Under the pieces are notes generated by a model. That model saw nothing but the letters and a program-made list of their open reading frames with translations. It ran no database searches and had not been told where the DNA came from. Of a stretch of DNA of 64,000 bases, positions 4,769 to 40,465 are shown one piece after another. The position numbers and the translations under genes were made by a program. The stretch is from Psammoneis japonica (taxonomy: Eukaryota), in contig QPGO01000115.1 in NCBI GenBank assembly GCA_008632985.1, positions 62,001-126,000 on the forward strand, in the 5' to 3' direction. Within the stretch, counting starts at the first letter, position 1, and every line of letters starts with the position of its first letter.

Positions 4769-5055
4769 CCTTTACCTTTTACAAGCGGTCGCCATTGGCA
4801 TTTCCTCTTTCTGCGGTGCTTATTTTTGGCGGGTTGGCTGTTGGCGGATGGTAATCGGATGACGGACGGATCCAGATGGAATGAACGCATCTTGATAGTG
4901 TCAGCAAATCGAACTCCAAATAGGCATCTTTCACCCTCTACAGTAGAGTAGCTTGAAACTCTAGAGCCCTACTTCTATCTCATGAAATATGTGTATAGTA
5001 CATACAAACTTTAGTCTATTGAACAAAGGTACATAGGACTACTCCTCATACATTG

Positions 5056-14882: not shown

Positions 14883-16499
14883 GACAGGATACTTATTCTG
14901 AAGTACAGTATGGTTTCGGATGTGTCGGAGTCAGTTGCGTTGTTTCTGACAGCTGCTGAAAAACGCCATTTTGTGGGTTAGATAAGTGAGAGAGATAGAT
15001 AATAAGATAGATCGATGTTGGAACCTGAAAAGGCCAGGAGCCTAAAAGACATCGACGAGACCAGAACATCGCCCACGCGCATGTAGACTAATGTGCTGCA
15101 CCGGCAGCCAACCTCAAATAAACCGCTTCAATTATGAACAGGATTGACAGCAAACGGCAACGAGAAAAACTAGAACGAAGCCGAGAAAGAGCATGGAAAT
15201 GAGAGTAAGGATGAGAACAAGGATGCCAACAATGTGAAAGGCCGTGGTGTCGGCAGCGGCATTGGTGAAAATGCATCAGGAACAAGAAGGAAAACACTGT
15301 GGGGTGAAGCAGCACAACAAGAAGTGGGGGGCAGTGGGAGAGAAAAGGTTGCTCTCCACAAAGCATGAAAGTTGACCCCCCACAGAGTGCAGCCCAGACA
15401 CACAGCTGCTTCTAGAGAGGGGGTCTCTGTGGTTTTGTGAACCACACCCCCAACAAACTGTGTGTGCCTGTTGTCCCCCAACCTTTTTGTTTTGTTGGAA
15501 ACAGCTGTGGAAGAAGAGCCTGGTGGCAGCGGTGTGCACATGCTGCCAGCGGGGCACAGACAGCATCATGAATCTGGGCACTGCACAAAACAGCTGTTGA
15601 GAAAGTGACAAAGGGAAGCAACCCCAAAGTCCAAACAAGAAACACAGAGGCTCCCCAAGCTTCCACTCAAGATGATGCCAAAATTCACAATGGGACAAGA
15701 GGCATGGCCGCATGGTGCACATGACAAGATGGAGAGCAAGCAGCAGCCAGCAAGCACCAACTGCGCAGCTTTCACCAAGACAACACAAGAGACAACGGAT
15801 TTTGTTTGGGACACGCTTGACAGCAGTGGCCACACAAAAGGGGCGGCCGGTGGAGCCACTTGCTGCTGAACATGATCTTTTGCCATGCTGAGAAGCCAAA
15901 AACTCAAAAGAAGGGGAAAAGCAGGAGGAGACAAATGGCCAGGCCACCAGGACAAAGAAGCTGCACCAACAAAATGCAAAAGAAGCACACAACATTGTCT
16001 GGGAACAGCACGGCAATGCAGCGAGATCTGGGATCAAAACAAACAAGGAGTGGAAAGCTGTGGCCACAGAGCTTTTGTGGGGCCATGGTCTGCCCAAGAT
16101 CATCAGATTGGTGTGTTGTTTTTCACAATTTCCAAACAATGAAGAAAATCACATTGCCAGAATTGTGCTGGCTGCACCATGAGAAACAGAGCAAAACAAA
16201 AGATGAGCAAAGTGCTGAAATGAAAATTGTGACCAGCTTGGGTGCCAAGCAACTGAGATGCTCTGCAGTGTGGTCCAAGAACTCCTCTCATTTTGCCAAT
16301 CAGCCAGAACTTCCCAGGTTGCATGAAAAACATGCTTGCAGCCAAGTGTTCTGTGCAAAATGTTCTCAGTGCTTTTTGTCTGTGTCTTGCAATGTGCTCC
16401 AGTGCTCACAATCTCCAAGTCTGCAGCTCTCAGAGAATTGTCTCCTGTGGCACATTTTGGCACTTGCACCAATGCCTTCACATGTGCAATTGTCAGAGC

Positions 16500-19400
16500 T
16501 TGCTGAAGGTGTGTCTCTGACAAACACTGCTTTTTTTCTGCCAAATGTCAGCAAGTGTCACTCCACAAAGCCGGGCTTGTCTTTGACTGTGGTGCAGAGC
16601 TCTCAGCATGGTGCTGCTGTGCTCGTCCCCTCCATGATTTGGGCACAGCCAGGGCCATTGATGACTCCCTCTTTGAGCAGTTTGAGCCATGTCACATGTT
16701 TGCTGTGTCCAACTTGCTGCCTCTTTTGATTTGCATTGCAGCATTGCCAAATGCTTTTGGCAATGGCATTTGGGCCATTGTGCAATCCTTTAATGCCAAA
16801 GTGGTGCTTTGTTGTTTTTGTCATGTCCCATGTTTCTTCACTCTTTTCTCACTCTCTCCTTTTTGTCAGCATGCTTTGGTTTTTGATTGGCAACATGCTT
16901 GCAATTGAGTGTCATGTGCTGCACCTGAAAAGTGTGCTGGACAGAAGAATGTGGATGAGGAGAGCATGGAACGACAATGGTGCAGTGGTGCATGAATGAA
17001 AAGGAGATCATGAAAGGCAAAAATTGCACTGCATTTTGTGTTTTGTTGGAAACCACAATTCTGGTCTTGGACCAAAGGAGTGGCTTTTGGGCTGGTCTGT
17101 TTGCAACCACAACTGTGACCAAGCAATGTGCACATTGACAATTGTGGCACAGTTGTTTTGCATTTGTGGGTGTTTTTCAATCCCAGCACCTGATTTGCCA
17201 ATTGAGAGAATGATGGCAGAATTTGTTTTTTGGTCTTGATGCAAAGTTGTCATGAGACACTGTCTGTTTGCAACTCACCAAAGTTGGCTTTTTGAGCTGC
17301 ATGGTTTGTGTGCAACACATCTTCAGTGTGTCAACAACTTGCTGCTCTGTGTCTGTTCAATGCACGCTTCCTCTTGTTGCAATCACCTGTGCATGCTGCA
17401 GAGAGTGTCTCACATCTCTGCCAAAGACTGGAGCTGGGTGCAGCCATGGATGCCACTCTTCTAAAAAGACCTTTTGGATCCATGCATGTGTCTTCAACTT
17501 CACAGCTCCTGACCACATTGCTTGTGACTTGGTGGGTGTGCTCAGTTTTTGCTGTAGAGCATCTGACAGCTGTGGTAAATTTGCACCTGACAAACTCACA
17601 TTTTCAGCCACATGCACCCCCTTTCATCATTGTGCTCAACAATTTTTTGCAGTCCAGTGGCAGGGGTGCTCATGACAACAGCTTGAACCTTCAAAGGCTT
17701 CCTGCTGCTCTTTCACCTTGCATGTGGGCCAGTTGGGTCCACACAGTGTCTTTTTCAAGGCTTGGCTTCTGCCTGTTCAAGAGGCAAATCATGTCTGTGC
17801 TTCTCATGTGTTTTTTCATGGATCTCACACACTGGACATTTGATGCCATGACTTGGGTGTCTTGTCTTCTCTCACATTCAGCCAGGGCAAGTGCCATTGT
17901 TGAGTGAATGCTTCTGCCCTGCTTGTGTCTGGATGCAACAGGCAGGTGCCACACAATGTTTCAACATGGTCTTGCAGTGCTTGCAGGATGTCAAAATTTT
18001 TCCTTTGTACATTGCTGGTGCTGTGGATTGTTTGCCTCCAGAAAAAACATCAGCACAGCAACTTCTGGGTTGCACTGGTTTGGAGTGACATTGTCTTGGC
18101 ATTGAGCCTTGTCAATGGCACCACACTTGCAGTGGAAGTGTGACTTTTGACAATCCTTGGTGTCTTGGTGCTCAGCACATTCAATGGCTGTGTTAATTTT
18201 TTCAACTGTTTTGTCAACATCTGGGGCCAGCTGAGAGTGCTGGGAACGACAAGGTTTGAGGAGCCCTTGACACACCACACATGTGGGCTGACTCTTCCAT
18301 TGCAAGACATGTTCTTGTGACATGCTCATCATTGATTTCTTTGTGAGCAAGTCAAGATTTTTGTGGTCAGTGTGCACACAGTTGTTGTTTGTGATGACCA
18401 GACAGAATGCTTTCAAATTCTTTGGGTGTTGCTGTGGTCAATGGCAGGTTGCTCTCTCTCTGCTGTCACACACCTGCTGTGCCTTGTTCTTGTGACATGC
18501 TCAGCATTGATTTCTTTGCAAGCATGTCAAGATTTTGTGGTCAGTGCATGCACAGTTGTTGTTTGTGATGACCAGACAGGTTGTTGTCATGGTTGACAGC
18601 AAGTTGCTCTCTCTCTCTCTCTCTCTCTTCTCTGCTGTCACACACCTGCTGTGCCTTGTGCAACTTGCAGCTGTGGAAAGCAATTTGACAATTTTCTTAA
18701 CTTGTGACAGCACCAAGCTGTGCTTGATCTCCATCTGCAGACAACAAGAAATGGCTCATTGAAGTTGGGGCAGACATGACAAAACACATCTTTGGTGAGC
18801 AAACATTGCCCTGCATTTGTCCACTTAACATGTGCAGGCCTGCTGCTCAAAGGTGCTGGAATTTGAGAATGTCTTGGCCACATGTCTCTGCAGCAGCTCA
18901 CTCTGCAGCAAGAAGAACAAATGTCTTGTTTCTTTCTGCATCGTTGGTGGTTTGAAAGCATGGGTTGCCCCCCACTTTTTGAAGCAGCAGTGGTTTTAAA
19001 CTCAGCAGAAAGCAGCTTTCTGCATTGATTCTCAAACTTGCTTGTTTGTCTCATTGGAAGATCTTTTGAAGTTTTTCAGATGACCACAAAAACCACCTTT
19101 TGCAGCAGCCAGCACACCTTTGAGATGGAGCAATCCATTGAACTCTCCACCAAAGCAAGAAGCTCAGATGCATGTTCCTGAAACACATCCTCCTGGGCTG
19201 TTGCAGGCTCCCGCCATTGGCAGTTGGAGAACTGAAATTGCACTTTCTCCCTGTGGACTCACACAATGATGTGTGCAGCATCAGTTGAACAAGGCAGCAC
19301 CCCAAATTTGCACCCAACAATGTCATGCAAGCAAACCCTTTGAGTTGATGAAACAAAAAGTCTTGCATTTTTGGCAGGGGGGGGGGGGGAGGTTTCCTTT

Positions 19401-19900
19401 TTATTCTTTTGTTGAGTCCCCAAAGCATGACACTGGAGCCTTGTGTTTCTTTTTTCAATCTTAAGCTCTTTGCACAAGAAGCTGCTGTGAGAATGGCTGC
19501 ACTCATTCTGCTGCCCAGCAAGATGTGAGCAGGGTTCAGTTTTCTCTTTTCTGGACTTGGAGTTTTTCGTCCCGAAACTGTGGGTGTTTGATGCCCCCAA
19601 GTTGACATCTTTTTCTTGTTTGGAATGGAAAAAGCCCACCTGATTTTTTGCTGGATGAACTTGAGCTGTGTGTGCATTTAAAGTCAGACTTTGCTGAGGG
19701 CAAGTTTTGAAAATTGTTCACTCTGCTTGCCATCAAAGTCGCTGTCTTTAGCAGCTGCCCTGGCTTGCTCATGTGCATGAGTTTTTGAAAATTTTAACCC
19801 AGTGGTGCCCAGCTGGCACCTTCATCATCTTTTGAAGCTGAGCCCAACCGTGACTTTGCAGCTCATTTCATGATGTCCAGTGCATTGAGCATTGGCACAC
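16500..19900 (-). mobile_element. Heavily mutated Ty3/Gypsy pol remnant (RNase H-integrase); boundaries approximate
   Basis: VHTDHKNL and ACTDHK (VYTDHKNL) followed by QEHVLQW (QRVLRW-like), and the integrase C-terminal PVFGRDV (LVFGRDM-like), in RNaseH->INT order on the minus strand. Confidence 0.65.
18311..18660. repeat. About 175-bp tandem duplication inside the Gypsy remnant, with a (CT)n expansion near 18607-18628
   Basis: gttcttgtgacatgctca...gtgatgaccagacag and tctgctgtcacacacctgctgtgccttgt each occur twice. Confidence 0.85.
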
Positions 19901-20399
19901 AGAACAACATCTGCTTTTTTTGTTTGTGTTGGCTTCAACCAGTTGTGTGCTGCCACTCTCAGCAGTCTTTGCAGACAGCTCAGTGCCAGCAGCACATGAG
20001 CTCTGCCACTCCAGCCCAGCAGAATTGGGCTTTGTCTTGTTGGATTTTTCCCTTCTGCTGGAATGCTGTTTGTCAAATGTTTTTCCAGAAGCTCCAGACA
20101 TTGCATCAGAGTGCACGAAATGTTAAAAATGTGTGGATTTGCATGATGACAATTTGTTAAAATGTTGCAAAACATTGTTGTCAAATGATGACAGGCCAAC
20201 CTCTGGTTGCAAGTTTGGTGTGCCAACATTGCAACAACTCATTGAGAATCATGTGTGCCATTTTTCACTGTGCCCACATCACCATTTCTGCCTCCACCTT
20301 GTTGCCACACGCCAATGCGTGATTGCATTGCCACACAAACCTTGGTTTGTCAATTTTGGTGAACATTGTTTTAAACAAGAAAAACATTTCATCGGTTGA

Positions 20400-23300
20400 G
20401 TCAATTCCTTGTTGCGTCTGCAGTGCAATGACCGAGTGCCATGTTAACTGTGCACATGTTTTCTTGCCACAACTCTCTTAAACTGAGCCAACAATCATCA
20501 TCGGACTCGTCTTCATTGGACTCATCTTCATCGGACTCATCTCCTCCGTTGCTTGTTTTGCCTTTTGCACCTTCCTCCTGCTCATCGTCATCACTGTTGT
20601 CACCCCTGCTGCTCTCCACCATTGGGCTGTTCATTGCCTTCACCTTCTCCGCATCACCGGTCGGTGCTGTCTTCTTCTTCTTTTTTGCTTCTCCGGACTT
20701 CTCGCACTCGCTTTTCTTGATCTCCGCATGCCACTTTTCAAACTCCTTGCCCTCCTTGGAGTCTCTGTCTTTCGTCACCTCTTTGCACAAATGTTGAACC
20801 GAATGATTCCATTGTCTCCCCAAGACACTCGTTGTTTCTTTGGCTTCGTGTGCCAAGGGGCAGGCCTTGTTTCTTCGGGCTCCATTTCCTCACCCAATTC
20901 TTCCACCGCCTCCTCCTTGTTCCTGCATGCCCACACCTGCCAACAATTCTCCATGGCCAATGGTGCCAAAGCTTCGTCACCTGCCGCAAACAACTGTGAG
21001 ACCTGTGCATTCCCAGTTTTGACGGTGCTGCTCCATGCCTGCTTTTGCTTGGTTTGAGGTAGGATGTGATCACAGAACCACTTGCGTGCCTGCTTGTTCC
21101 TTCGTTTGCCGCCGGTGACAGTGTCTGGGCCAAACAGATCCCATGTTGGCACAAACGGGATGTCATTCTCTTCATTCTTGTCACGGCTTGACTTTTTCCT
21201 GGTTTGCTTTTTCCTCCTGACTGCCGCCTTGAGTTTCTTTTCTTTTTCCTTTCCCTCTTCCTCAGTGACAATGCCTGTGTAGACAAAGCATCACCGTCAT
21301 CTTCTTGTGAGACACACGCAACTCTCGAATCACACACATTGGTCACTCAACTTACGGGCCATTGCCTCCGCCCCAACAGCCGAACACACCGTGTTTCTGC
21401 GATTGTCATTTGCCTTTTTACCGCCTTTTTTGCCCATTCCTCCCAAGTTCCTGACCAATTTGAAGTGTCCATGTTGCCACCAGCAATCTGTTTCTTCACA
21501 AACATTGAGGCGCTCCCATTGCTTGCCAACTCTGACGGACTGAGAAACTTCACCTGTGGAAAGAGATTATTTCCAGCCACCTTCTCTGCTTCTGATTTCA
21601 ATGCACCATGTGCTGCCTGCGCACCTGTTCTCTTCAACACTGCCTGAAGTCTCAGGCTCATTGGCTCAATGGTCTCATTTTTCTTTCTCTTCTTTGCCGG
21701 TGGTGCTGGAGACGACATCTTGATCTTTGCATGGCAACAATGAGAGCAGTGTCACTGTTTGACAGTGCAACCGTCATCTGGGTCGTGTTGAGACAGCCAG
21801 CCACTCTGTTTTTCTCTGTGACATTGCACAAATTGTTGTCAGCAACATTGAAATTTGAAAATGTGTTTGTGCAACAATGAACAGTCCAACTTGCTTTTTG
21901 ATGTGGCTGTCATTGCGTTTCAACGGAGACAATGTCCTTCATTTTGACAGCAAATAAAAAAGAACAATGTTCACTGTAAATGCCAGATAAAAAATCAAAA
22001 TGCAGACACGTCACACCCACAAGAATCATCCAAATCTGGAAGACAATGTAATGTTTGCCATTTTCCCGCCATTTTTTGCGTGTTGTTCTTCTTTTCCCTT
22101 CTCATCCACAAGACAAGGACGACAAGTGTGAGTCTTGATGAAGGCCCTGTCAACATTGACCAGAGAACTGTGAGGCAACGGCATCAGCGTGCAGACTTGG
22201 TCAGTCGCTGGCAGCTTGATCACAAATAAACAACTGGCTTTCAATGCCTGAGAAGACTCAGCACTCACCTGAGTTGCGGGTTGTCCCTGTCAAAGCAATT
22301 GGGGACAATGTTTTGGTTTATGAAGAATGTCCAGGAGCAGCAGAAGCACAAGAAAAGGCCCTGTTTGTTTGGGCCACACAGGACAGAAGGAAGTGTTGGT
22401 CAGATTTGTTTCTAAAATGGGACACGCGCATCAATCCATCATTCACTCACAGTGATTTCCCAACTCTTTCTTGCAAACATGATGAATTTGATCCTTTCAG
22501 AATCAGCAAAGTCATTGCGGTGCACGTGAAGCAGTGCGGCATGAGCACCTTCCGTTGCTTTTGTTCTGATGTCTTCTTCGGAAACTCCAAGACAAGCTTC
22601 TTCCTGATCGGAAGGCTTTCCCAACCACCATTCTTGTTGTTCTTGGGTTGCAAGGTTGCTTGCAAAGAACAAACTCGCACGGCTCTTTGCAGCATCATTG
22701 TCCATTGTGCATGTGTCGAACACAGCCGATGATTTCTTCCATTGTTTGACAACCTGGAAGAAGGTTGCAAGAGCAAAGGGAATCACTGTGTCCCCCCCTT
22801 CTTCGTTTTTGGAGAGCAAGGCCCGAAGATCAAATAGATTCTGGAAAAATTGAGTCGTCCCAAAACGACTGTCGCACCACTCTCCATCTGGCATCCAGCA
22901 GCAGTCCAACATGATTTGGTCGAACCCATGATTGTCAAAATCAACAAGTTTCTCAAACTGCTGCTTGACTCTCTTGACGAAATCTCTTGCTTTCACATTG
23001 CAATTTAAGTGCAGATCAGGATGGCCGTCTTGGAGAGAAACTGTTGGAACAACGTTTGTGATTGTTTTGTCAGATTCCTCAAATGCCATTGCGCGGGCCT
23101 CGTCTCGCCTGTGTTGGTCGGACGACACTAAGGCCACCCCCTTCTCAGAGCACAACTCTTGAGAAGATAGTTGCCTTGCATTGAGCGGACGGGTCATCCC
23201 AACCACAGCACATTGTGTGTTTCCCCGTTGGTTTCGTCACTTGCGAAACTGTCTCCCAAGTTGCTGTGGTCCTCTTCACCCTCGGAGCAATGTGCAACTT

Positions 23301-26300
23301 GGTTGTGCTCATCATCAACAGGCTCTTCGCTTTTGTCCTCTTCACCCATGCAAGCAGTTGGAAGTTCGCTTGTTTTCTCGTCAATTGACTCCTCCTTGCA
23401 ATCGTCACTTTTGTTCATTGCGAATGACAACAAATCACTGGCGGCCTTCTTCCTGTTAGAACGAGAAATCAATGTGATGATGTCAGCACAATCAGACAAA
23501 AAACAAATGTGATTGCCATGAAAAAGTGACCTCTCTTTGCCGTTCCAGTTTGGCTCGAACTTCATCAATCGACACGAATGGGACTGGCTCCCATTTGCAC
23601 CTTCCAAGCCGCTTGATCGTTGATTGCCCATCAGAGAACAAGAGCAACAGATGCTGTCCGCAACAAAAGACATCGCAGATTCCCATCTTTTCACGAGCTG
23701 CACTCAGGTCACATGGTGAAGACTTGGGGCCATTCTTTCCACAGTCTTCCAAATCAAAATCACCCTCCATCCGTTCCAAGAGTAAATCGCGCTCCACCAC
23801 CGGGACCTTCATTTCCTCCATTTGCTTCGCCACTCCCAACTTGGCTGCCGGGTGGACAAGATTACGAAGGTCAGGGTGAGGATGGATCCCTGTGCCACAC
23901 AGCATCAATGTCGTGTGTGGAGTTCATGCATCTGAACTCTCCACAATCAGCACCTGCATGATCCCATGTTTGGACCACGGCTTTGAACATGTCCTCGATC
24001 GCCTTGTGGTCAAACGTTGGCTTGCCAACATTGTCATTGATCCAGTCGATGACAACAACCAGTCCGCCAACAAGCAAATCCATCAAACCATTGAGTTTTG
24101 TCCCGCACTCTGCCACATGAACCTCCTCGAAATCGAGTCCCGGGCTCTGCATGCGTCGGTTGTTGCGATCCCCCGCAATGCTGCCGAATGGCCTCGCAGC
24201 TTCTCTGAAGCAATGAAGGACACAATCGCCAGCCATGAAAGGACGCTTCACAGCATCTGTGTTGCACAACAAGCAGTGAAAATGGGAGAATCCGGTTTGA
24301 CACCCAGCCACAACGGCGCAACAAAAGCAATCGTGTGCACCAACCTCATCGAGGTTGTCGATGATTGCCGAACAACCGCACGAGAAATTAAAGTCCTTCA
24401 CGATGGCAAACGGAAGACGTTTCCTCGGCATGACAACAACGGGACACTTGACTGCGTCGGACGGAAGATTTGGCTTGCCAATTTCCTCTTCCACCCACAC
24501 AGAGTGAGGGTCAAGGAAAAAATCTTTGATGTTTCTGTGGGTTGGCTTGCCCGACGGAGGACGACAAGGGCCACGGCATCTCATCATTTCTGCAGCATGT
24601 GACAGATCAAGTTTTGCAAAATGACCATGCACACGCGATCGGAACTCAGCACACCCATGCACCAAACTGACACAGTTTCCAGCATTGCCTTTGGATGCAG
24701 TGACAACCTTCAATGACCAAGAGCGACCAACAGCGTCTCGCAGTGACGAGCAAAGAGCACCAGTCTTGGTGTGCCCATCCATGTCACAATCCTCTTTGTC
24801 AATGTGCAGCTCGGTTTTCGAATTGACGGATTTTTTGCCGGACGACGAGATGCACTTAACTTGAATTTCCACGCCTTCCCTTCTACATGCTTGGCTCCAA
24901 CCATCTTACGGAGCTCAGCCGCGAAAAGACTGTCACGGTGCAGGTCATGGAAGGAGCGCATTTCTTTCAATGCAACAAGATTGATTTCGTCCTCGCAGAG
25001 TTGCGTGGTGTCCAAGATTGAGGGCGTCATTGCCTGCACATCCTTTGGAAGCTTCTCCCACTTGTCCCTGCCAAAGACAGCACCAGGCTTGTGAGCAGGT
25101 CCCACTTCAGCTGACTCGCCGTCTGCGACTTTGTAATTCTGGCCACAACAACCAAAACAGATCCAACAGCGCAACTTGCATTCTGGTCCATCCCTTTTTT
25201 TGTTTGGCTCGCCATGTTCCAACACTGCACGGAGCATCAACGACACACTGATCGCAATCCAAAAAAGCATTTCTGACACATCTTGTCCGTGTGTCGCAAA
25301 TGAGTGACCACGTTGGAAAAATGAGAGGTTGACTGGGTCGGGTGAGCAATCGCAACCATCGATTCTTGCGTCGGATCATTGGGAGCTGTGCCGTTTTCAA
25401 ATCCATGCATGAACTTGCGGAGGTGATTCACCAAGCAGAAATCGGAGATGCTGTGGAACAACTGGTGCTTGACACAGTTCCCCTTGAAGGAACCGGAAAT
25501 GGGTGTTTCCTCAAAGATGACAAGGTGAGAATGTTGTGACTTCACCTCACCCGGAATCGCAAACGGAGATGGTTCAGGAAACACTTTCACAAGCTCTTCT
25601 TTTGTGAAATTGTCTGGCGGAGGAGGAGGCGACTGATGAGTTGCACCGAGGGTCGGCCACTTTGTTCGGGAATGTTCAAATTGTTCCTCGAGAGTCGGCA
25701 CATCTTGGAGAATCAGCGATTCGTTCTGAGAAACATCAGAAGGTTCACCATCTTGGGGTTTTTTGAGACTGGGGCTTGAGGAGCAAAGGGAGGCGGCCAA
25801 AGAGGTGGCAAGAAGAATGGAAGCATTGGAGACAAGTAGAGGAGCATGAACAATCAATCAAACAATGTGATGGATTCACACCATTTGGGTTTTTTTGTTT
25901 CCGAGCATTTTTCGCAACGGATGGAATTGCATTGCCGATTTCTTTCTTCTTGCACTGAGTGGCAAAGTCACGAAGCCTGGCTTTCCACACAGCCTCAAAA
26001 CAATCCCTTGCAGCCTTGCTTTTGCCGGAATCGTCAGCGGCAGAAACCACACGATCAATTTTCACACATCTTAAAAGAGTCTCATCGACATGTGTTGCAC
26101 GCATTTGTTCTCGCTCGACATCGAGCATTGCCAGTCGCATGGGCTTTTCCCAAGAATTTTTGTGTTGGTGGAACAACAACTTTACGAATTCAGGGAAGGA
26201 CATGGGGCATTCGTCTTTGGTTGTCTCACAGCAACCAAGAGCCAGGAAATTCTCCAAAAAGTTGATGCAAGTTGACGTCTCATCACATTCGCCGAACAGG

Positions 26301-27830
26301 GAGTGCAGCCAATGACTGCAATCGCCATTCCTTTCAGGTGCGTGCGGCAGAATCTTGTCACGAAGAATCAAAAAACCAATGTGAAGGCATTGTGCGTAAC
26401 GCAAAACCTTCCCTTCAAAACTTCTCAGCTCAATGTGCTTGACAAGTGGCTCTCCCTTTGGGTCGCACAATCCGGGATCATGGAGAAGCTTGCCAACATG
26501 GAAATCTTTGCCATCATGTTGGTTGCAATGTCTGTTGATTTTGCCTTGTCGCCGACGACTTTCACATCCTCTGCTTTGGGAGCACGGTGACACTCCAATG
26601 CATGAGGATGTTTGGCGCCTTGACTGGAATGACTCCATCCTTTTGTGGAAAGAAAGTGCAGCAAGCTCTTGCACCCAAGTTCCTTTGCAACAATGCGGTT
26701 CACAGCCATCAGTTCTGCAAAAAAATGAGGTCTGCCCTTCGACTTTTGCCACACATGGGCAAGGCGATCCAATTCGGAGAGGGTCACAAGTGGAATCGCG
26801 GTGAAACTGAACCTTGGATTTCACCGTCTCGATTGTCGCTTTGACACGGCTCCGCTCGTTGCTGTCGATCACTCCAAAACCGTTGGCAAAGAGAGACTCA
26901 AATGCGGCCTCCTCGAGGTGGGAATCATTGTTGTCTTGCAACAGAGAGGTGACCGACAGGTCACGCGGCGCCATGGTTGCTGTTCCAACACCAAAAAATC
27001 TGGTTTCTGTAGAAACACACCAGAGTGGTGTGTGGGAGAAGTCACATGCGCGCCTGGTGCGATTTGGAGTTTTAAACACAAAAACCTGCCAGACGCGTGT
27101 GCAACTTCTCCCAGGGAAATCCTGCATGAGATTGTGCCGGGAAAGGGCAATGCGGAGTGTAGAATTGATGGAAGAAAATGTTGTGCGGAAAAGCATCAGG
27201 AGAAAGGGTGCATGCACTGGAAAACAACATGGATTTCTACATGCGCGTTAAGGTGCGTGAAAAACACGTGGGTGCCTTCAAGTGACGCGTGCGAACAATC
27301 ACAAAGAAACATTCAGAAATGGAGACAGCACAGAGAGAAGTCAGAAACATGGATCCAAAACAAAGTGACACAACAGAAAAAAAAAACAACAACAACAAGA
27401 GATGAAGGCGACGGCGACGGGATCGATGAAAAAGAAGGATTCGGATGGAAAGATGCCAGAGACGGTGAAAACAGGCGGCGCCAAGACGAGGAAGGAAGAG
27501 AAAAATGGGACGGGCAAAATGAAGAAAGACAAAAAGAAGCCGACGACACGACATCAAGAGGGGAGCAGCGACACGATTCAGCATTTCGAGGGACCTCTTC
27601 CTCTTGATGATGTTCACCCAAATGCAAGAAATGCAGTGTGGCTTTTTTGGAACGGTGACGAGGAAACATCCAACGCGGCAGCGGCACATTTGAAATTCTT
27701 GCAAGAGAGCGGACAAGACATGTGGAATGAAGAGGATGATGTGGACGACTGGGCAAATTGGAGCACAGTTGTCAATTGAACAATCAGTGCACACTTTGCA
27801 TGATGAAAATTTCATTGCATGCAATTGCAA
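20400..27830 (-). mobile_element. Degenerate multi-ORF element (possible Plavaka/CACTA-like transposon or viral-type insert) with cargo ORFs
   Basis: Chain of long, nearly Tyr-free minus-strand ORFs (25745-27217, 25237-25857, 24710-25279, 23871-24872, 22439-23206, 21347-21718); LFPQVKFL and plus-strand LRVVPVKAI...WSDLF recall Plavaka-associated proteins (my recollection, unverified). Confidence 0.4.
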
Positions 27831-28099
27831 TGTTTGGCTTGTCGTTAAAGATCGTCAGTTGTTGTGAAAAAGGCAGAGCACAAAAATTAAAAAACATCTG
27901 TGTTCAAACATGAAGAACAGCAGGAGATTGACAATTGGCCAAATGACAAAAACCGTCATGTGCAGACAAGTAGATTTTATAATGTGGCAATGTGTTTTTA
28001 TCATGTGTGCAGATGTTATGATGTCGTGCACTCTGATGCTTCACAGATGTTCACAAAACCAACCAAGGAACATCTCACAATGTCAAAGCTCTGAGGAAA

Positions 28100-30030
28100 A
28101 ACTCAGCACTGCAAAATGTTGGGACACACAGCCTCTGCCATGACAGGGGTGCAACAGCGGCCACAAACTTCCAGACAGTCAGTTCCTGCAGCTTTCAGAA
28201 GCACCATTGGAGAAAACACTTCTGCTCACATGGTGCATGACAAGGAAAGCATCAGAAACAGACCTTGCAAGATCTTGCACAGCTGTGTCAAAGTGGTTGT
28301 TGGTCTTGTTTTCATCAGCATCAGCAGCTGCATTGAGTGCAAATGGAGCACTGCTCTCTGACAGAGAGCACATGATCATGTGCTCAGAGAAGGGCGCCTG
28401 CATGCACCAGCTTTGTCCAGCATCTTCAAAAAAGCAACACATTTGGAGACTTTGCCCCATCTTTAAAGGTCTACATGTGCAGGGCAATGGTTTCCAACAA
28501 GTTCAAGTTGTTGAGATTTTTGCCCAAATGCCCCCCTTGACTGCATTTTTTAATTTCTTGTCTTTTGACATTTTGGGAGGAACCAAGGGGGAAGCTGGGA
28601 GAGCAAGAGAGGTTGGTTGCTGGCTTTGCAAAGATGTCAGCAGGGGGCACCATGGTTGGAGACTGTCATCACTCATGTGTCTTGGAGCTGCTCAGAATGG
28701 CACAGCAGTTGGCTGGCAACTCAGTGGGCTTCTCATTGGGGCATGTTTGCAGAAGACTGAGGGACATGGTGAGCTGACACTTTCAGAGTTTGGAGAGTGC
28801 CAGAGGCATCAACCAGAGGTGCCAACAAAAGACTGGGCAATGTGGTCCACACATCCCTTCCACCTTGTTCTCAGCTCATCCTCTGGGCCCTGCATGGCCT
28901 GTGCCAAAGACTCTTCTCCCTGTTGACAAGATCCATGTAAGATGGCTGTCACTGAGTGCCATTTTGCATTGCCCACCACACTGTTGTTGCAGAGTTGCCA
29001 TTGTGTTCAAAATTGAAAATTCTCCATCAGCCATTTGGCATTTGGGTGCAGGGTTTTGACAGCTTTTGTGCTGCTGGTGGTGGAGGCTTGTGTGGGGAGC
29101 ACACACCCACTTCAAGTTTGGGCTCCTGAGCAATGCTCTTGTCACTGCAATTGCTGTGCCAGTGCTGTGAGTCTTGGTCTGGGGGACCATTTTCTCCAGT
29201 GGGTCACATGTCTCTCCCACTCATCTGGATGGCTTTTCTCTTGCTGATGTTGGTCAGCTCAGAGCTGGAGTGCAGATTTCCAAGAGCCACCTTCAGTTCA
29301 CTCACAACATTTTCATGCTGCACACACTGCATTGTCTTCCTGCTGTTGGCATTTTTTTTCACAGTGGGGCATTTGTGACTCCCATTCTGTGGTGGGCTTG
29401 CCACTTGCTCCAGGGCTTCTTTCTACCCCTTCCAAACATCTTGCACAATGGGCTTCATTGTTGTTCAGACCAGTCAAAAAGCTCTCTTGACAGGGATCAT
29501 GAGTCAGTTGGGGGCTTGCCTGCCCCAGCAGTTTCACAAAACTTTTCTTCCATTTCCTGCTGCCATGTCTGAGACCAAGTTGACTTGCCAACACAGTTGG
29601 CACAGATTTGGTCCAGCAAGACACACTTGCCTTTCATGCCCACCTGTCAGAACACCTCTGCACCTGAAAACTTTTGTTGTTGACTCTGTGCAGCAGCGAG
29701 GGGATGGAGGGTGATTTCAATTTGGAAGCTGTTCTGCCGCACCAAGAATTTCCAAATGTCCTTTATCCAGGAGGTGTGATGTGATGATCCAACAATCAAC
29801 TCTTCTGGGAGCAGAAGGCAGACAAGCCAGATCAGAGTGCCCAACAAAATGAGCATGGGGAGTGCAACTTGAAGGGCTCGCACTGCTGGCATCAGGGCTG
29901 GAGGCAGTTGCTCTGGTCTGGGCGTCTCCAAACCAAAGCGTAAAATGAGCCAGGTCAATTCAATTGGGCAAACAAAGGAAGAAGTCGAAGATTCATGACC
30001 AGGTCCACAGAACGCAATTGTAGATAGCAC
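28100..30030 (-). mobile_element. Possible degenerate non-LTR retroelement fragment
   Basis: SWIKDIWKFL...IEI and ALSDS (SDGS-like) fragments; TpA/CpG-depleted. Confidence 0.3.
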
Positions 30031-31465: not shown

Positions 31466-32530
31466 ATCTTCGACGACTTATCAAGTGGTGACAGGTATTT
31501 CACGGTGCTGTTATTTTTGATTGGTTGGTAAACAGGTTCAATTGCAAGTCATAGGTACCGGTAAGGGACTGAGGAGCAAATTTTTGTGTTCTGTCTTGTG
31601 TGGCATGTCCTTCAGGTGTCGTGTCGATGATGGTGAATATTTGAATGATTGTGAGCGCGTGCGTTGAAGGTTGGGCACGGGCGGTGGGGTTCGCAAAAAG
31701 AGGCGGGAAAACTCTCTCTTTTTTGATACTGTGTAGAAAATATACACGACCTCATTATCCATCCGCGACCAAGCAAACCTGATAGTACCTCCATACGATC
31801 TAAGTGGTGATTCCCGTAGAGAATCAGGCGTACCAACGGGACTCGAAGGCAATTTATGTTTACCTCTATAAGATAATTATTACTTTCGATATACATCATC
31901 CATGCTGGAGAACACAAACAAACAGAGCGACGACCCAACGGCACAATACTCCTAATACTTCATAACTGCTTTCCGTTGGCTCCATTATTTGCTTTCCGTT
32001 CAATTTTGAATAACTTTCGTATGTGCCGGTAGTGTGGAAGTTTCAAGCACTTTTGGTTTTGAGGTAGTCGACGTGCGCACTTGCGACCGGTCCGACTGGC
32101 GCAGTTCGTTTTTGGTCATGTCTCTGTGCTGCACCTGCTGCACCGTGCTTCACCATGAATGACCAAATGGTGGATGGAAGACAATTTTGTCACTTCATCC
32201 ACACCAGAACAAGACCCAACACAAACAAACAACACAGCAGCTGCAGACTGAGGGCACTTTACCATCTTGTGTTGCAGCAGTCAAAGCAGCTTGGATTTTT
32301 TGCTTTCACAGAAAATGTGTGCTCAGTGGCGGCGCAAAAGAGACTGAGCTCCCAAAGAGCAAAGCTGTGCTGCACAAGCTCATCACAGCCAGGTGATGCC
32401 TTGGAAACACACACCTCAGGTTGCGCACAGCAAATCAACAAACAGACCAGTGTTTTGGCACATGAGTGATCCAAAACATGTGCTGTTGGTGACTCTTTGG
32501 GAAAGAAAGCAAAGAATCCTTGCTCAGCCA

Positions 32531-32762
32531 AGTCGAAAGACAGTTCTGTCGTGTGACAGGAAGAGAGAAGCTTGCGCAGGTTGTTTGCAATGCAAACAGC
32601 ACCAAGGCATGCAGACATTGTTGTTGTTGCTGTGCTGTTGTTCAAAGGATTGTGGCAAAATTTTGTTGCAATTTTAACAGCTGTTTGAGTGGTCAGCTGA
32701 ACAAATCAATGGGTCTGGGTTGCAGTCATGTTCTGCAACCAGAATGATGTTCAGTTGTGACT
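32531..32762 (-). repeat. 3' LTR of the Copia element (232 bp)
   Basis: Aligns with 39449-39677 (shared gtctgggttgcagtcatgttctgcaaccagaatgatg); adjacent to the PPT. Confidence 0.85.
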
Positions 32763-35700
32763 CTCCTTCTCAACCAAAAGAGCTTGTTCACCAGCCCATC
32801 AGAGCCTTTCTGGCCATGCGGAACACATCTGTCCACAGTCCCTTCATGAACTGATCAGCCAGTTGCTCTAGAGTGCTGACAGGTTGGATGTCAAACTGCA
32901 ATTGTTCGACCTTTGTCCCAAACCAATGATGCAGGACACCAATGTGCTTAGTTCACAGAGACAACTTGGGCACATGTGCAAACTTGAGGGCACGCAGTGT
33001 TGTCTTTGCACACAACGGACGCAGGCAGGATGTTCTGCTTGATGGGCAAGTCATTGGTGCCTTTTTTGGTGAGCTCAAAAGCCTTGGAGAGTGAGTCATG
33101 ATGGGGTTGCGGTGGTCAGACTTTCCAAATGCACAATGGTGGAGCTCCTTCAGAACTTCACAAATGGGGATGAGATTGCACACAGCCTGCAACAGCATGA
33201 CATGCTCCACTTCCACAGTGGACAATGCCACAAGAAGAGTCCGCAGCATGGACACCTGGACAAGTGGACAGCCGGCACAGTGGACAAGGCATCCAGTCCT
33301 GAACTTGACTGAAACTGGGTCTTGCCCATCTTCAACACCAAACAAGCCTGTGAAGTCAGAATTGACATGACAACCAACTCGATGATCTTGCGCAGGCTTG
33401 AGCATGAGACTGTCAGTGGCAGCAGCCTTGAGGCATCAGAGCATCCGCTGCTTCACTGCAGCAGCATGGGATGCTCGAGGTGCAAACAAAAAACATGCAA
33501 CTTGATGTGTTGCATGTGCAACATCTGGCCGGCTGTTTGCAGCCAAGTGCATCACCATTCCAACAACTGAACAACAATTGCAGGGTCAACCGAAAGTCAG
33601 GCCATCCTCCGTGTCTGTGCCAACATGTGCAGGAACAGCTGGAGTGGCAGCTCTGTTGCAATCTTCCATTTGGGCAGCGCGCAGGACCTTGTCAATGAGA
33701 CCAGGTTGAGTGAGCAGAAATTGACCATTGGAGAGCTTTTTGATCTTGATGCCAAGAAAGTCACTGACTCCTCCTTCATCTGCAAGTTCAAACACATGGC
33801 GATGCTCATTGTCAGAGACTCCTCCTGGCTTGCAAATTTCCTCCTCCAGAGCTTCTGCTGACACACCAGTGAACACCATGTTGTCAATGTGCATGACACA
33901 CATCATGCCTTCCTTGAAGTGTGGGCATGGGTCTGTGGCTGAAGGTGCCCATCCGTGCTTGATCAAACCATCTCACAGTTTCTCACAAAAACACTTTGGA
34001 GACTGCTTGAGGCCACACAGTCCTTTCAGTGGCTTGAGGACCACATTGAGTCCCAACCTTGGCACAAAACCCTTGGGTGGTGATGGCGGACTTCTTTGGC
34101 AATGTCCGCTTGGCAAAAGGCTGTGGTGTGGTCTGCTTGACATGCAGTCCATCTCTCTTTCAATGCAGCAGTGAGCATGAGTCAAATGCTGGACCATTGC
34201 ACTGCTGGCACGCATGTCTCAAAACAATCTGTGCCCTCTTTCTGCAGATCACCATGGGTGCAGTGCTGGGACTCATGCTTCAAAGGCATTCCATCTGGTG
34301 GCCTCTTAAGTTTGAAAGCCCATGTGCCAGGGAGTGCACACATCTTCAGTGGTGCATTTCACTGCTTTCCAGGCTTGATGGTGGATGAGCACATTCACTT
34401 TAATCTTCATTGCCTTGATCCACTCTTTTGCATCCGGGCCCATCAGAGCATTGTGTGGCAAAGGCACACTGGGGTTCTTGGTCTTCTCACTTGCTGCATG
34501 AGCCCTGGGAATGCCAACATTGCATGCACACCAGCATCCAAAATGGTCTCAAGAGCAGCCAGACAAGCCAGCTGAGCTTGGCATCTCATTGGCACCTCTT
34601 CTTCCTTGACGGAGCTAAGAAAAACTTTGTCCATGAACTTGGCAGAATGGAGCTGTCCCTTGGTTCACCTGGAAGACCTTTGAAGAAGTCCCAACTCTCC
34701 CTCTGAATTCACCATTGGAGATGCTTTGACTGGAGCAGGTGCTGTTGGTTCAGAAGGTGCTTCAGGTGGCGGAAGTTTGTCACTTTCCTGAGGTGGAGGT
34801 GGCTGAATTGGCACAGGCTCTGCAGAGTTTGCAGTGTCTTGAGTTGCAGGTGGGGCTGGGGGCTGAGTTGGAGTTGGTGCTGGAGTCATGGGCACAACTT
34901 GATTTGATGCATCATTGAGAGGAACAGCTGGATCCTGCACAGATGTCGATGGAGTTGGTTGGAAATTGCCTCAAACACAAGTCTCTCTGACCAGTTCTTC
35001 TTGCTCCTTGCATTGGTGTTCAAGAGGAGTGAGCCACTCATTGTGAAGATGGATTGTCTGGTCTTTCTCCAGAGGGATGATGAAAATCAACTGCTTGTGA
35101 CAAAGTTGCTTCCAGTGGTCAGATGGATCCATCTCCCTCTTGATCAATGGTGCAGCAGTGAACAGACAATCAAAAACCACACAATGCTGAGGAGCAATGC
35201 TTCCAGTTTGAAGATTGAGTGCAAGGGGTGCCTTGCTTGAATGGATTGTTCTCAAACCAACAAAAAGAGCATGGTGAGCACGTGGTTGCCATTGAGGCAG
35301 TTTCTTCCCAGAAGCAAGTGCCGGGTCAAGAATGCACGCTGGACAACCCCATGTGTGAATGTCTTGCAAGTGATGCCAAGGCACCATGGAACCGGTGAAA
35401 ATGTCTGCTGGGCAATGCCCTTGTGCATTTGGGGTGATGTTGCAGATGTGCGTGGCACAAGATGCAGCTGTGGGTCACAGTGAACTGTTGGCCCCTCCCT
35501 TCCAATGAATTGATGCATGTGGGAGCATCGCTCTTGCCATGTTGGAGACAGAACAAATGCTGCACTCAGCAACCCTGCTCTGGTGATGGGCATTTGCACC
35601 ACAGATTCAAAGACATTGCTTGTGCTCCCTCACATGCTGGACAAAAGAGTTGGCCTTAAAGTGCCGCTGTCAGCAAGAAATTCTTGAATGATGACCCCAT

Positions 35701-37600
35701 GGTGGAGAGCATCATGTTTCTCAAATGCTTGTTTTGCTGGAATCATCTCTGCAGCAGAGAAACCCAGTTGATGTTCAACATGGAGGCAGCCTGAGGCATG
35801 GTCCATGAAGATGCAGACTCCCTTGAATTGTTTGGACATGGCTTCACTGCATGAGTCACAGGTTTGGCCTGGGAGGTGTGACTCAAAATGATCAATGCTT
35901 GTAGCCTGACCCAGTCACAAATGGTCAGGTTTCAGGGCCTGTCGTGCTCAGGGACTGCTGTCTTGTGGCAGAGCCCAGAGATTGTTTGTGACCTTTGGCA
36001 TGCTTTGCATCTTTGGTGGTCACACTTGGCCACCAACTTGAACCAATTTGACAAGAAAGAAACTGAACGGAGAAGGGCTTGGACGCGACCAAAGTTCAAA
36101 TGACCAAAACAGGAGTGCATCTCTGACAAAAGCTTCTGACCCACCATCAGATTCTGGTTTTCTTTGTTGAGAGCAAGCAGGTTCATTTGGGGAGCTTCAG
36201 AAACCCCCTTGGTCATTGACACAATGGGCAAGTGGCTTGAGGCATGACATGGCACTTCCAACTTCCCTGAGCCGTCAACACAAAGTCTGAAACTGTGCTG
36301 GTTGCCTTTGCACTTCCCACAGACACCCTTTGCTTTGTTGAAGAGATGCTGTGGTGACAGCAGACCTTGTTGGGCCCCAGGGACACAGTGCACCATGGCA
36401 TTCAGTTGGATGGTGGCACCGCTAGTGTTGTGAAGATCCGCGTGTCTTCATCATGAGAGACAGCCAATGTGGCACCAGTGTCTGTGATGACAGCCAGACT
36501 CCAGACTCTTGTCCAATGGACCGATGAGTGCCTGTGGATTGGTTGCCAACAGCTCGGCTGGGATGTGCCAGTGAGGAACTGGATGGTGGATGCATTGCAG
36601 ACAACTGGCCCAACACATGCTTCTTTCAACAGAGGCAACAGGATCTTGAAAATGAGCAGCATCAACAATGTGATGAGGGACACAGAGCTTGTCAAATTGG
36701 AAGGAATCAGAGCTGAAGTCCTCAAGCATGTCAAAGAAGCACTTCTGCTCATTGAGAGGCTCCAATTCCTCATGGGTGTTGAAGAAGGTTGATTCGTCAA
36801 TCAAGTCTGACCATTCAACTGCTTCTTGGGTCTTCCAGTGGCTTTGCAGACACTTGCTCAGTGCTCGATGGGTGGCACATGACAAACTTGGTGAGCACCT
36901 GCATGCCCTTGATCTTGTTGCATTCAAACAGAGATCCAGCATCTGACACAAAACCCAGTCATCTAACTCCTCCACAATGTTGCAGACCTGAGAGCTGGCT
37001 GTCGAAATTGGCTTGGCACATTCATGAATGGGCACTCAGGCTGTTGACTGACACAAACTGCAGATCATGCCATGACTGTGATGGACAGGACCATCCAAGA
37101 GGCTGGAAACCTGCACAAGGTGGGGAGTTTGTGTTGGCAATGCAGAGCTCAAGGGACACTTGGGATCAGAGCAAAGCAGACATGTGGTGCCGTTTCCCAA
37201 AACACAGCAGCAAGCCAGAATGCAAAGAGTTTGGCTTGTCCCAAAATTGATCGACACAAAGAGAGGTCTCTTCTTTGTCACACTCATGACAATCATCCAC
37301 ATCAAGGTTCTCTGGATCATAAAAATCAAAGCCATGGTGTGCAACACTTGATGGCAAGTCATTGCACGCATCTTCAAAGTGCAACTCATGTTCAAGAATG
37401 AGGTCCAGCTTGGCGGTGTCTGACAGCATGTCTGCAAGGTTGGCAGGTGCATCACAGAACTCATCTGAGTGCTTGATGGAATGCAGCTTTGAGGCTGGAA
37501 ACAACTCAATGGCCAGTGGTTTGTTTTCAATTGCAGACAGAGCATTGGAGCATTCACAAAAGTCATTGGCATCTTTGGGAGTGACGGTCTCAACCACAAT

Positions 37601-37662
37601 TGGAGACATGACTGGAGACATGACTGGATCCACAACTGGATCCACGACTGGATCCATGACTG
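37601..37662. repeat. 12-bp tandem repeat (about 5 units) in the gag-pol linker
   Basis: tggagacatgac tggagacatgac tggatccacaac tggatccacgac tggatccatgac; encodes PVMDPVVDPVVDPVMSPVMS. Confidence 0.85.
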
Positions 37663-39448
37663 GGCAAGTGTTTCGTGAGCTCAATTTGATGCAGTTCTCC
37701 TTGAAACTGACTTCCTTGTTGTTCTCCCACTTGGCTGAAGGGGCTGGAGCAACTGTTGCTGTCACAGCAACAGAGGTGGCAAGAAAACTTGGGTCATCAA
37801 TGGCATCCGTAGCCGCACACCACACACCCGTGTGCACCAACTCGTTGGGGTCAGATTCCTCCCCATCAGGCTCCTTGACAGTGTGAGCTGGTGGCCCCAC
37901 AGGCACACCGCTGTCAGGATTGGAGACTTGGGATGGGTTGCCCACTGGTGTTTCCTTGGGAGATCTCTTGAAGTTGTCCTTGTGCTCTGTGGCAGAGTGG
38001 TGTTGGTGGAGGCCAAGCTTTTCAGCTCCTTTTGCCACACACTTGGCACACCACTTCCATTCCTTCCCATTCTTGTTGGCTGTTGTGTCCCCATCACATT
38101 TCACACACCATGCCTGAACCCTTTTCTTCTTCTTCTTCTTCCCACCAGGGTCATCAGCAGGCATTGGATCCAGATTGGTGTCCTTTGGAGGGGGCTTCAG
38201 GTTGCACTTTGGACAGTTGTGCTGCAAAACACTTCTTGGCACTGGCTGGATTGTCAGACATGGAGAGGCTCCCTTTGGGAAGTTTTGCCACCAAAGCTGG
38301 CCATTCTCTGTCCTTGATGAGTTCAGAGTGCTCCTCCTGAATCCATGCAATGATTCCGACCAGTCTGAGAATGGCGCAGTCAGTGTCCAACTTGACAGCA
38401 GCAGGGCCCTTGAGGCAATGCTTGCGTTCCATCTTCTTAACATCATCAATCTTGTCATGCACTGAATGATTGAAGTGCTTGGAGGATGCATTTGAAACTT
38501 TGTGCAAGATCTTGGACCCAACATTGACCGGAACCGCACAGTCAGTCTGCATGATCTTGAGGATGTGGAGAGCTTTGGCAGCAAAGTTGGTCCAGTCTTC
38601 ACTGGGATGGGTGGCTAGAGCAAGCTCATCTGGGTCCTTCTTTGCACTCTCAATGTCAGCTGGAGCACTGGTGTTGCATGCATCCAGAGCCATCATGAAC
38701 AGCACTGAGCCTGGACAGTTCTTGCAGTCCTTCAAGTGGTTGAACTTGGTCTCCATTTTCTCGTGGAAGGTGTTCGTGATTCTTGATGGAACCAGCAGCT
38801 GGGACAGCCAGATGTTGTCAAGCTTGATGTCATTGTTGGCTGAGCCATCCAAGGCTGTGGAGCAAGAGGAGCGTTCTGCATGAAGGTCCACTGTGGAGAA
38901 CTTGTGGAGGTCATCAAAAATGCACACGGCAGCTCCATCCAATTTCTTGACATGGCAGAACATCTCTTGTCCATGAGCCTCAACTGGATCTTGGATGGTC
39001 TTCATGAAGGCATCCGTTGAACTTGGAAGTCATTGTGGAAGCTTGTTGATCTTAGAAAGAGCGCTTGATTGAATCAAGAGCTTTGGGGTGACAACACTGG
39101 GATGCGAAACAGGCAGGTCACAAGTGTTGTTTGGCTGGCATGGATCCGCTGACACAAACTCTGTGAGTCTGATGAAATCCACTGCAAATTGGTTGGGTTG
39201 GTTGTGGTTGGTTCTGGAGTTGCATTCCGGAGAAGATTGTTGTGAGTTGCTGCATCAACACAGCATCTGGAGCAGCACCAGTGGTTGAGGATGCAGTGGG
39301 AGGTGCAGGAGATGCCATGGTTGGATGTGAAGGCAGAAAGAGCAATTCAAATCAGGAGCTGCTTTTCCAGGTTTGCTTCAAAATCATGTCTGTGACAACA
39401 AACTCAGCCAGGAGCTTGGCACCAATGCACAAATTAGTCTCTGTGACC

Positions 39449-39677
39449 AGTTGAGAGACAGTCCTGTCCTGTGATGGGGAGAGAAAAGCTCTCGCAGGTT
39501 GTTTGCAATGCAAACAGCACTGAGGCAAACAGACGTTGTCATTGTTGTCTCGTTCCAAAGATCATGGCAAAAGTTTGCTGTGATTTTGAACAGCAATTTA
39601 AAAGCAGTTGGCTGAACAAATCAATGAGTCTGGGTTGCAGTCATGTTCTGCAACCAGAATGATGTTTGGTCGTGACT
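39449..39677 (-). repeat. 5' LTR of the Copia element (229 bp)
   Basis: Aligns with 32531-32762; lies just upstream of the gag ATG. Confidence 0.85.
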
Positions 39678-40465
39678 GGCAACAAGAGCAACTTTGCAAA
39701 ACTCCAGAGAGGTCTTTCACTGTGCTTGGCTGTGCTCTTTGACATGATCACTGCCAGTGCAATTTTGGCTTTGTTGTTTTGCACTTTTGATGGCATTCTT
39801 TGCTCCACAACAGGGCAAAAACAATGCTTTGTTGGCACAGATGAGCTCTGGGAAAGACATTTGTGCAGCAGGGGCAAGGCTTTGCAAGGGCAACACCAAG
39901 AAGATGTGCTGTGTGCCCCCAATGTTTTGCTGCAGAGTGGTGACCACATGGGATTCAGAGGAGTGTCACTCCCACTGAACATGAAGAAGGGGGTGGGGGT
40001 GGGGCAGAGGGCTGGCGAAATTTGGCAGCATGTGAGATTGTGGAGCAGGCAGAGGGCAATGTGAGAACAGCCAAATTCCTGGTGCCGAGAAAGTCAGAGC
40101 AGCCGTGCTGCGGGGTGGGACAACAAGAGCAGCTGTGCAAGGGTGGGACAACATCATGGCTGGATGCACATTTCTTGCAAGCGACAACAAGCGAAGTGGA
40201 AAAGTGGCAAAAGGATCGCAATGATTTGGCCCTCAGACAAACTCTAGACTGCAAGGGTCAACACCCCCCCCCTGTTATCGTTGTGCTGCAGACAACAAAA
40301 AAGCGATAGATGAGCAGGAACGCAAGTACACACCGTGCTATCACCCATAGCTAGCAAAGTAGATGCTGTAGAGTGAATGGGATTCATTCCCCGTGTGGTT
40401 TCACAGTAACAAACTCTATATTATGCATTGCAATCGGCAACATTTCCAACCGTCTGGGTCAAACG

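Follow-up and report, generated by a model that had tools for sequence, protein, structure and literature searches.

We analyzed a 64-kb stretch of Psammoneis japonica DNA (contig QPGO01000115.1, 64,000 nucleotides; hereafter the window), which constitutes our whole dataset. The window carries intron-poor eukaryotic genes, including PSME4/Blm10, a GH3 glycosidase, GatB, three PP2C genes and others, and between them lie blocks of DNA depleted in the dinucleotide 5'-TA-3' (TpA). The ratio of observed to expected TA is 0.00-0.19 in these intergenic blocks, with TG and CA each raised to 1.3-2.25, while in the genes the TA ratio stays at 0.4-0.8. This report concerns the loss of TA in the blocks, which we term TA-erased tracts, and the sequence rule that the loss appears to follow, whereby TTAA is largely left standing.

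Six tracts totaling 28,205 bases (Table 1) were delimited by us from TA density alone and compared with 31,145 bases of untouched, mostly genic DNA located 400 bases or more from every tract. The loss of TA in the tracts is plain. At the left border of the largest tract, TA occurs every 10-40 bases until 15206, after which the next two are those at 15413 and 16791; the right border, at 29941/30021, is equally sharp, with dense TA again from 30021, as are the borders of the tract holding a copia retrotransposon (32065/32260 and 40245). As in the TpA hypermutation discussed below, the erasure is confined to particular non-host or silent DNA and spares the neighbouring genes. TG and CA counts per kb are nearly equal in all tracts (bias -0.20 to +0.18), and both strands are attacked within the tracts. 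CG has also been erased from 15.3-20.4k, 27.8-30k and 32-40k, and is kept despite the TA loss from about 20.5-27.7k. The opposite extreme is a TA-rich patch at 52501-52750, adjoining a PP2C gene, with 37 TA and 3 CG per 250 bases.

Table 1. TA-erased tracts of the window and the elements residing in them
Feature	Position	Strand	Remarks
TA-erased tract	251-1250		
TA-erased tract, largest	15300-29950 by density limits; 15207..30020 by borders		
Region of the sequence-only reading	15300..19900		Anonymous DNA; TA and CG both erased
High-copy element, ~8 kb	19969..27972		TA erased, CG largely kept
409-codon open reading frame of high-copy element	25748..26974	-	Tyr codons rewritten to Cys/His
TA-erased tract	32100-40200		
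Ty1/copia long terminal repeat (LTR) retrotransposon, decayed	32066..40244	-	TA and CG erased
TA-erased tract	46300-47200		
TA-erased tract holding mutated duplicate	54800-56700		
Mutated copy of 0.5-kb duplicate	56026..56515	+	1 TA left
Little-mutated partner of 0.5-kb duplicate	56633..57108	+	11 TA; 'before' state
TA-erased tract	61050-62700		

Survival and products of TA by sequence context

A preliminary reading of the letters without database searches (the sequence-only reading) had reported that 8 of about 15 TA surviving between 15300 and 19900 lie in TTAA, and had proposed measuring this excess against base composition. The count holds, with positions matching to within a base: 15 TA remain, eight of them TTAA (at 16791, 18194, 18698, 18826, 18997, 19462, 19679 and 19795), the other seven having the contexts CTAG, CTAA, GTAG, GTAA, GTAC, TTAT and TTAG. 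In the window's untouched DNA, TTAA accounts for 49 of 1267 TA (3.9%), which gives a binomial p of 2.5e-8 for the region; against the share of T..A flanks among the region's own pyrimidine-purine steps (7.1%), p is 2.5e-6. The remaining tracts, which the sequence-only reading had not used, contain 22 TTAA among 88 TA (p 2e-12), and all six tracts together 30 among 104 (p 3e-18). That TTAA is by chance or base composition merely the commonest TA context here is refuted by these counts, T..A flanks making up so small a share of the steps, and can be given practically no weight. The 30 sites are not copies of one motif, since they are scattered and differ in their wider flanks. All five TA remaining at 20001-20500 are TTAA (20124, 20158, 20372, 20445 and 20479).

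Each TA may be read as TAA on neither strand, on one strand or on both, and we term these contexts classes 0, 1 and 2; TTAA is the only TA context in class 2. The number of former TA was estimated internally from the pyrimidine-purine step total of each flank class, which is conserved because the decay of TA and of CG preserves T or not-T before the step and A or not-A after it. Survivors in classes 0, 1 and 2 number 27, 47 and 30 in the tracts versus 780, 438 and 49 outside (chi2 128). As a share of the estimated former TA, survival is 3.6% when neither strand reads TAA (27/746), 12.4% when one does (47/379) and 74% for TTAA (30/40.5). The four palindromic contexts form a ladder of observed counts over those expected if untouched: ATAT 0/85, GTAC 1/76, CTAG 8/70 and TTAA 30/44.

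An additive per-strand model, whose rate on each strand varies with the 3' neighbour of the A, accounts for all 16 contexts; the rates are 2.47 for T, 1.78 for C, 1.19 for G and 0.24 for A (chi2 about 12.5 for 12 degrees of freedom, by our arithmetic). It is superior to a single rate (likelihood-ratio chi2(3) 122, p 2.5e-26) and also to a model distinguishing only A from not-A (chi2(2) 25.6). Halving or doubling the assumed density of former TA shifts the values and leaves the order of the rates unchanged. We do not press the difference between T and C, because T and C at +1 can interconvert through the decay of neighbouring TA and CG. The observed-to-expected comparison of NTAN contexts that the sequence-only reading had called for was made within the window by modelling all 16, and TTAA shows the highest survival. 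The rule is graded, with T and C above G and all three far above A, and is not a clean TAB (B, any base but A). The base at +2 is skewed as well: A makes up 0.48 among survivors versus about 0.28, alike for +1 = A, C or G, and T is depleted. The enrichment of A is 1.9-fold at +2 and 1.4-fold at +3. The C-A part of the +2 signal may in part reflect only the general gain of CA in the tracts.

Survival totals are identical whether the determining base is an A after the target or, as its mirror image, a T two places before it; the direction of the products alone separates the two rules. All class-1 sites were oriented as V-YR-A (V, any base but T; Y, pyrimidine; R, purine). The shares of TA, TG, CA and CG at such steps are.139,.260,.348 and.253 outside the tracts and.017,.335,.562 and.086 within them. 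If CG decay is split evenly, the share of lost class-1 TA that became CA is 1.07 (bootstrap 95% 0.91-1.24), and none of the 5000 resamples fell to 0.5 or lower. A regression over 15 sub-tracts, which separates TA from CG decay because the sub-tracts differ in CG loss, yields dCA = 1.08 dTA + 0.49 dCG. The CA/TG ratio is 1.36-2.05 in 8 of 8 tract pieces, compared with 1.22 expected for context-blind erasure (our arithmetic); untouched 3-kb blocks range from 1.13 to 1.67. Broken down by context, the CA share is 1.17 for AYRA, 1.06 for CYRA and 0.93 for GYRA, which bear TAA, and 0.56 for AYRC, 0.77 for AYRG and 0.50 for CYRC, control contexts without TAA; all six are close to the prediction from the survivor-fitted rates. 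VTAA survivors sit where TG locally exceeds CA, and TTAB survivors where CA exceeds TG (Mann-Whitney p 0.016).

The 0.5-kb duplicate allows individual changes to be read directly. This is the paralog pair from which the sequence-only reading had taken the changes gtaa>gcaa, ctaa>ccaa, ttag>ttgg and ttac>ttgc; the pair is real, although it lies outside the 15300-19900 region. Ten TA can be aligned, of which 8 have become TG or CA, 1 has become TT and 1 is kept. All five class-1 changes are in the predicted direction (ttac>ttgc twice and the other three once each), so that in this pair the outcomes in TAA contexts are not strand-random, as the sequence-only reading had required for its rule. Three class-0 sites changed either way, and the sole TA kept in the mutated copy is a CTAA.

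In the copia element we examined codons that are preceded by T and shared by at least 50% of the aligned homologues, of which no fewer than 8 were required. First-base A>G changes are present at 5 of 5 Thr codons (T|AC) and 5 of 5 Ile/Met codons (T|AT), versus 1 of 3 Lys/Asn codons (T|AA; Fisher p 0.038), and two of the three T|AA codons still read TA. AAN codons are preceded by C unusually often (10, versus 5, 2 and 6 for the other kinds), as expected if the rule holds, because T|AA would then be resolved by a silent T>C on the other strand. The 409-codon open reading frame (ORF) of the high-copy element provides a noisier comparison, having in a search of 5.8 billion proteins a single homologue, P0001 (47-49% identity). 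When it is pooled with copia and codons after T or C are counted, top-strand edits number 3/26 where +1 is A versus 14/29 where +1 is C or T (p 0.004). Three of the five Tyr codons that follow a T now read Cys, as predicted. Three allelic TA/TG/CA differences are found in run X1, at 19750, 29360 and 29425, a hint that the TA-erasing process may be recent; that at 19750, TTAG/TTGG, fits the rule.

P0001 retains Tyr at 6 sites where the ORF has Cys and at 2 where it has His, with one Tyr kept in the window copy. Phe (TTY) stands at 4 of 19 positions of 25748-27247 (minus strand) aligned to a P0001 Tyr and at 2 of 13 conserved copia Tyr positions, and the TA that became TT in the duplicate pair is TTAT>TTTT at 56295. 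The Tyr/Phe cases could be ordinary exchanges, or a minor A>T outcome arising, for example, when the edited base is excised and the resulting abasic site bypassed.

A graded per-strand rule and its rivals

The sequence-only reading had held that the A of TA escapes change only when another A comes next. The per-strand core of that claim is supported by four lines of evidence, namely the class counts, the CA share of lost class-1 TA, the duplicate pair and the copia codons (10/10 versus 1/3); its clean form does not stand, the rule being both graded and leaky. We consider it probable, at roughly 0.7, that graded per-strand editing dependent on the 3' base explains both the TA loss and the TTAA survival in silent DNA. 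DNA-level editing would act on silent, mostly transposon-derived parts of the genome, attacking each strand separately at 5'-TA-3' and changing A to G, after which the duplex would read TG or CA. Efficiency would be highest before T and C, about half before G and about a tenth before A, and would be lowered further by an A at +2. TTAA would be the only context to survive largely because both of its strands read TAA, while VTAA would be open only to bottom-strand attack, yielding VCAA, and TTAB only to top-strand attack, yielding TTGB.

The additive per-strand fit and the strand-specific products together point to an activity that recognizes T-A-N on one strand and alters the A there. On sequence grounds the target could equally be described as T>C in VTA on the opposite strand. 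The enzyme responsible would most simply be an adenine deaminase reading one strand, its chemistry presumably A to inosine, read as G, and chromatin state or repeat status would probably select the target DNA. The order T, C > G >> A is opposite to the usual order of base-stacking strength; as a speculation, it would be in keeping with the A having to flip out of the stack. In the older tracts CG has been lost in parallel, which we take to be ordinary decay of methylated CpG, with CG>TG and CG>CA equal and independent of the TA loss (CG split 0.49). Eleven differences between the window and a run X1 contig are listed for 15300-18339, including four of CG versus TG/CA (15465, 15858, 16871 and 18185), so that CG decay looks still polymorphic, and one of TG versus CA at 16935-16936.

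Several observations weigh against this reading. His has replaced Tyr at two of the five codons after T (at 33369, reading tCAT, and at codon 312 of the 409-codon ORF), and the allelic difference at 29360, TTAC versus TCAC, breaks the rule. The direct class-1 tally, drawn from the few sites of the duplicate pair, the Tyr codons and the allelic differences, thus stands at 9 for and 3 against (p 0.07 versus a coin toss), which is compatible with the leak of about 10-17% predicted by the rates (p 0.17). The block is leaky, with TTAA survival at about 0.7 and 3 of 12 direct sites going the 'forbidden' way. Both T|AA codons of the 409-codon ORF show A>G, and K/E and N/D differences from P0001 occur also at 4 of 24 codons not preceded by T. 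In the LTR pair of the copia element, 6 of 8 TG/CA discordances are in class-1 contexts, which would be forbidden for TA ancestors; their descent from CG is plausible, though unproven, because nearby TCGT sites retain their CG in one of the two LTRs. The LTR pair and a tandem duplicate at 18310-18659 were left out of the tally, as they offer only TG/CA discordances that cannot be assigned to a TA or a CG ancestor. Some 'survivors' may themselves be new mutations: at 25837 the T of the window is A in all 12 of the run X1 contigs covering it. Finally, the estimate of the CA share assumes that the erased DNA once matched the tetranucleotide make-up of the untouched, mostly genic DNA; by our arithmetic, an ancestral VCAA:VTGA of about 2.2 in every family would be needed to lower the share to 0.5.

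Survival in all 16 contexts would be the same if the blocking base were not the A after but a T two places before the A, making 5'-TTA refractory, and the three direct sites listed above as exceptions agree with such a rule. It predicts VTAA>VTGA and TTAB>TCAB, however, for which the observed share is about 0 (1 minus 1.07), and it accounts for 0 of 5 changes in the duplicate pair, while top-strand edits were found at all 10 T|AC and T|AT codons; we regard it as very unlikely. A different kind of block would be protection at the level of the duplex, in which the shape or stiffness of A/T runs round TTAA slows both strands alike. Such protection would agree with the enrichment of A at +2 and +3 and with several survivors within A runs at about 21955-22049. 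The 50:50 class-1 products that it predicts are nevertheless contradicted by a CA share with a lower bound of 0.91 and by the 5/5 of the duplicate pair, and the additive per-strand model already fits, so that we find it an unlikely explanation.

Context-blind attack followed by context-specific repair, best at restoring lesions in TAA, would leave survivors and product directions no different from those of selective attack. No observation in the window favours it directly, repair of this kind is not known for a TAA motif, and two sequence-reading activities would be needed where one suffices; we judge it improbable. The changes might instead be an artefact, if modified bases at TA in silent chromatin were misread so that each strand gave TG, which would mimic both the site-by-site choice of TG or CA and the motif dependence. 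Strand-discordant calls would, however, break contigs at every former TA, and the k-mer contigs of run X1 (depth about 60, strands pooled) are unbroken over 5,114, 2,307, 1,345 and 944 bases with 2-13 differences, the longest covering 15300-18339 with 13 differences. The coding frames, moreover, carry matching Tyr>Cys/His changes. Run X1 may be the assembly's own data and is to that extent not fully independent; even so, misreading seems to us highly improbable.

Relation to known mutational systems

One 2026 preprint has already described a TA-erasing process, in an unrelated alga; the flank rule is what is added here. According to the main text of that preprint, TpA>TpG and TpA>CpA account for nearly all changes in the integrated giant-virus and virophage DNA of Bigelowiella natans, where either strand may be hit, and the genome elsewhere mutates in the usual way; the authors propose a DNA adenine deaminase, with ADAT2 as the model (Mettrop et al., bioRxiv 10.64898/2026.01.13.699255). 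The changes were measured there as new mutations in mutation-accumulation lines, with 231 new TpA mutations tabulated. The main text gives no 3'-neighbour rule and contains no occurrence of TTAA, context, trinucleotide or flanking (bioRxiv 10.64898/2026.01.13.699255). As far as that text goes, the window resembles Bigelowiella in its TpA to TpG/CpA changes on either strand, confined to particular DNA and almost the only changes seen at TpA (8 of the 10 aligned TA in the duplicate pair). Unlike the new mutations in the viral inserts of that chlorarachniophyte, those described here are a fossil record in the transposons and anonymous silent DNA of another alga. Our literature searches found no such process described in diatoms, and no flank rule.

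Repeat-induced point mutation (RIP) has the order of preference CpA > CpT > CpG > CpC. Like this local hypermutation of repeats in ascomycetes (PMC2621366), the process in the window is local, strikes repeated or silent DNA on both strands, prefers one dinucleotide with a graded influence of the 3' neighbour, and stops sharply at genes. RIP converts C to T, at CpA, and so creates TpA, whereas here TpA is lost by A:T to G:C change and CpA/TpG are gained; the required neighbour is a 5' T, and the 3' base modulates. Amphioxus ADAT2 (BjADAT2), the one eukaryotic enzyme reported to deaminate A in DNA, causes A:T>G:C changes, as in the tracts, and prefers 5'-GAA-3' in Escherichia coli (PMC10354150). 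Its reported flanks, G before and A after, are both opposite to the T-A-(not A) found here, where the changed A follows T and is hit about ten times less often when another A comes next.

ADAR converts A to I on double-stranded RNA, with U/T preferred 5' and G preferred 3', and targets repeats. ADAR hyper-editing thus shares with the window the reading of A as G, the 5' T and the targeting of repeats. It acts on RNA, however, and with retrotransposition would leave changes on one strand of the retro-copy and a preference for a 3' G; here TG is about equal to CA, the LTRs of one element differ from each other, a non-retro duplicate has been hit, and T and C are the best 3' bases. Whether a novel DNA editor marks silent DNA, reading 5'-T-A-(T,C>G>>A) with A at +2 disfavoured, is to our minds an even bet. 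Such an editor, if real, would be a new enzyme or have a new specificity, because its motif differs from the adenine context of ADAT2 and from the neighbour preferences of ADAR.

With the flank rule, what had been only a dinucleotide signature becomes a fingerprint for the putative editing enzyme, and the separate reading of the two strands by their 3' neighbour points to a base editor that reads single strands, not to symmetric recognition of the duplex. Candidate enzymes could be assayed on four oligonucleotides, TAT, TAC, TAG and TAA, and the ladder ATAT < GTAC < CTAG << TTAA among residual TA is a simple, composition-independent screen for other genomes. If such an editor exists, TTAA would be its built-in blind spot, usable both to find the process elsewhere and to test enzymes. 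The dating of transposon insertions would be affected as well, because TA sites would decay at context-dependent rates.

Residents of the tracts and other repeats

No Pfam family was found in any frame of the anonymous DNA at 15300-19900. Its word depth in run X1, 45-82, is about equal to that of neighbouring unique DNA, so the region is taken to be single copy at a likeness of at least 80%. Within it are a (CT)n microsatellite (18598-18638), a run of about 13 G (19376-19391) and the tandem duplication at 18310-18659, with a unit of 175 bases.

The adjoining high-copy element has a word depth of 4,300-23,000 in run X1, peaking at both ends, versus about 60 for unique DNA. We found in it no LTR, no inverted terminal repeat and no Pfam domain, and metagenome scans with an alignment of the ORF protein and with a degenerate DNA pattern returned no further copies. 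Run X1 shows 973 variable places along the element, mostly transitions (A>G 200, T>C 205, C>T 176 and G>A 182).

The copia retrotransposon was identified by weak RVT_2, SH3_retrovirus and integrase matches, and tblastn of 40 copia homologues covers 32791-36444. Direct repeats D4 and D6, at about 32506-32762 and 39424-39677, are its LTRs. The idea that both LTRs keep one TTAA at the same site was dropped, since the alignment shows different sites.

A self-BLAST of the window yielded 8 repeat pairs, and repeating it with pyrimidine-purine steps collapsed to one symbol added none. A 1.5-kb duplicate (30037-31581 and 40348-41860; 86% identity) flanks the copia element and holds an ORF, some 440 codons long, that belongs to no known family. 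Its copies differ by ordinary substitutions, many of them transversions; three of their TA differences fit the rule and two or three do not, and these were left out of the tally because the pair lies outside the tracts. Both copies are unmutated though they abut erased tracts.

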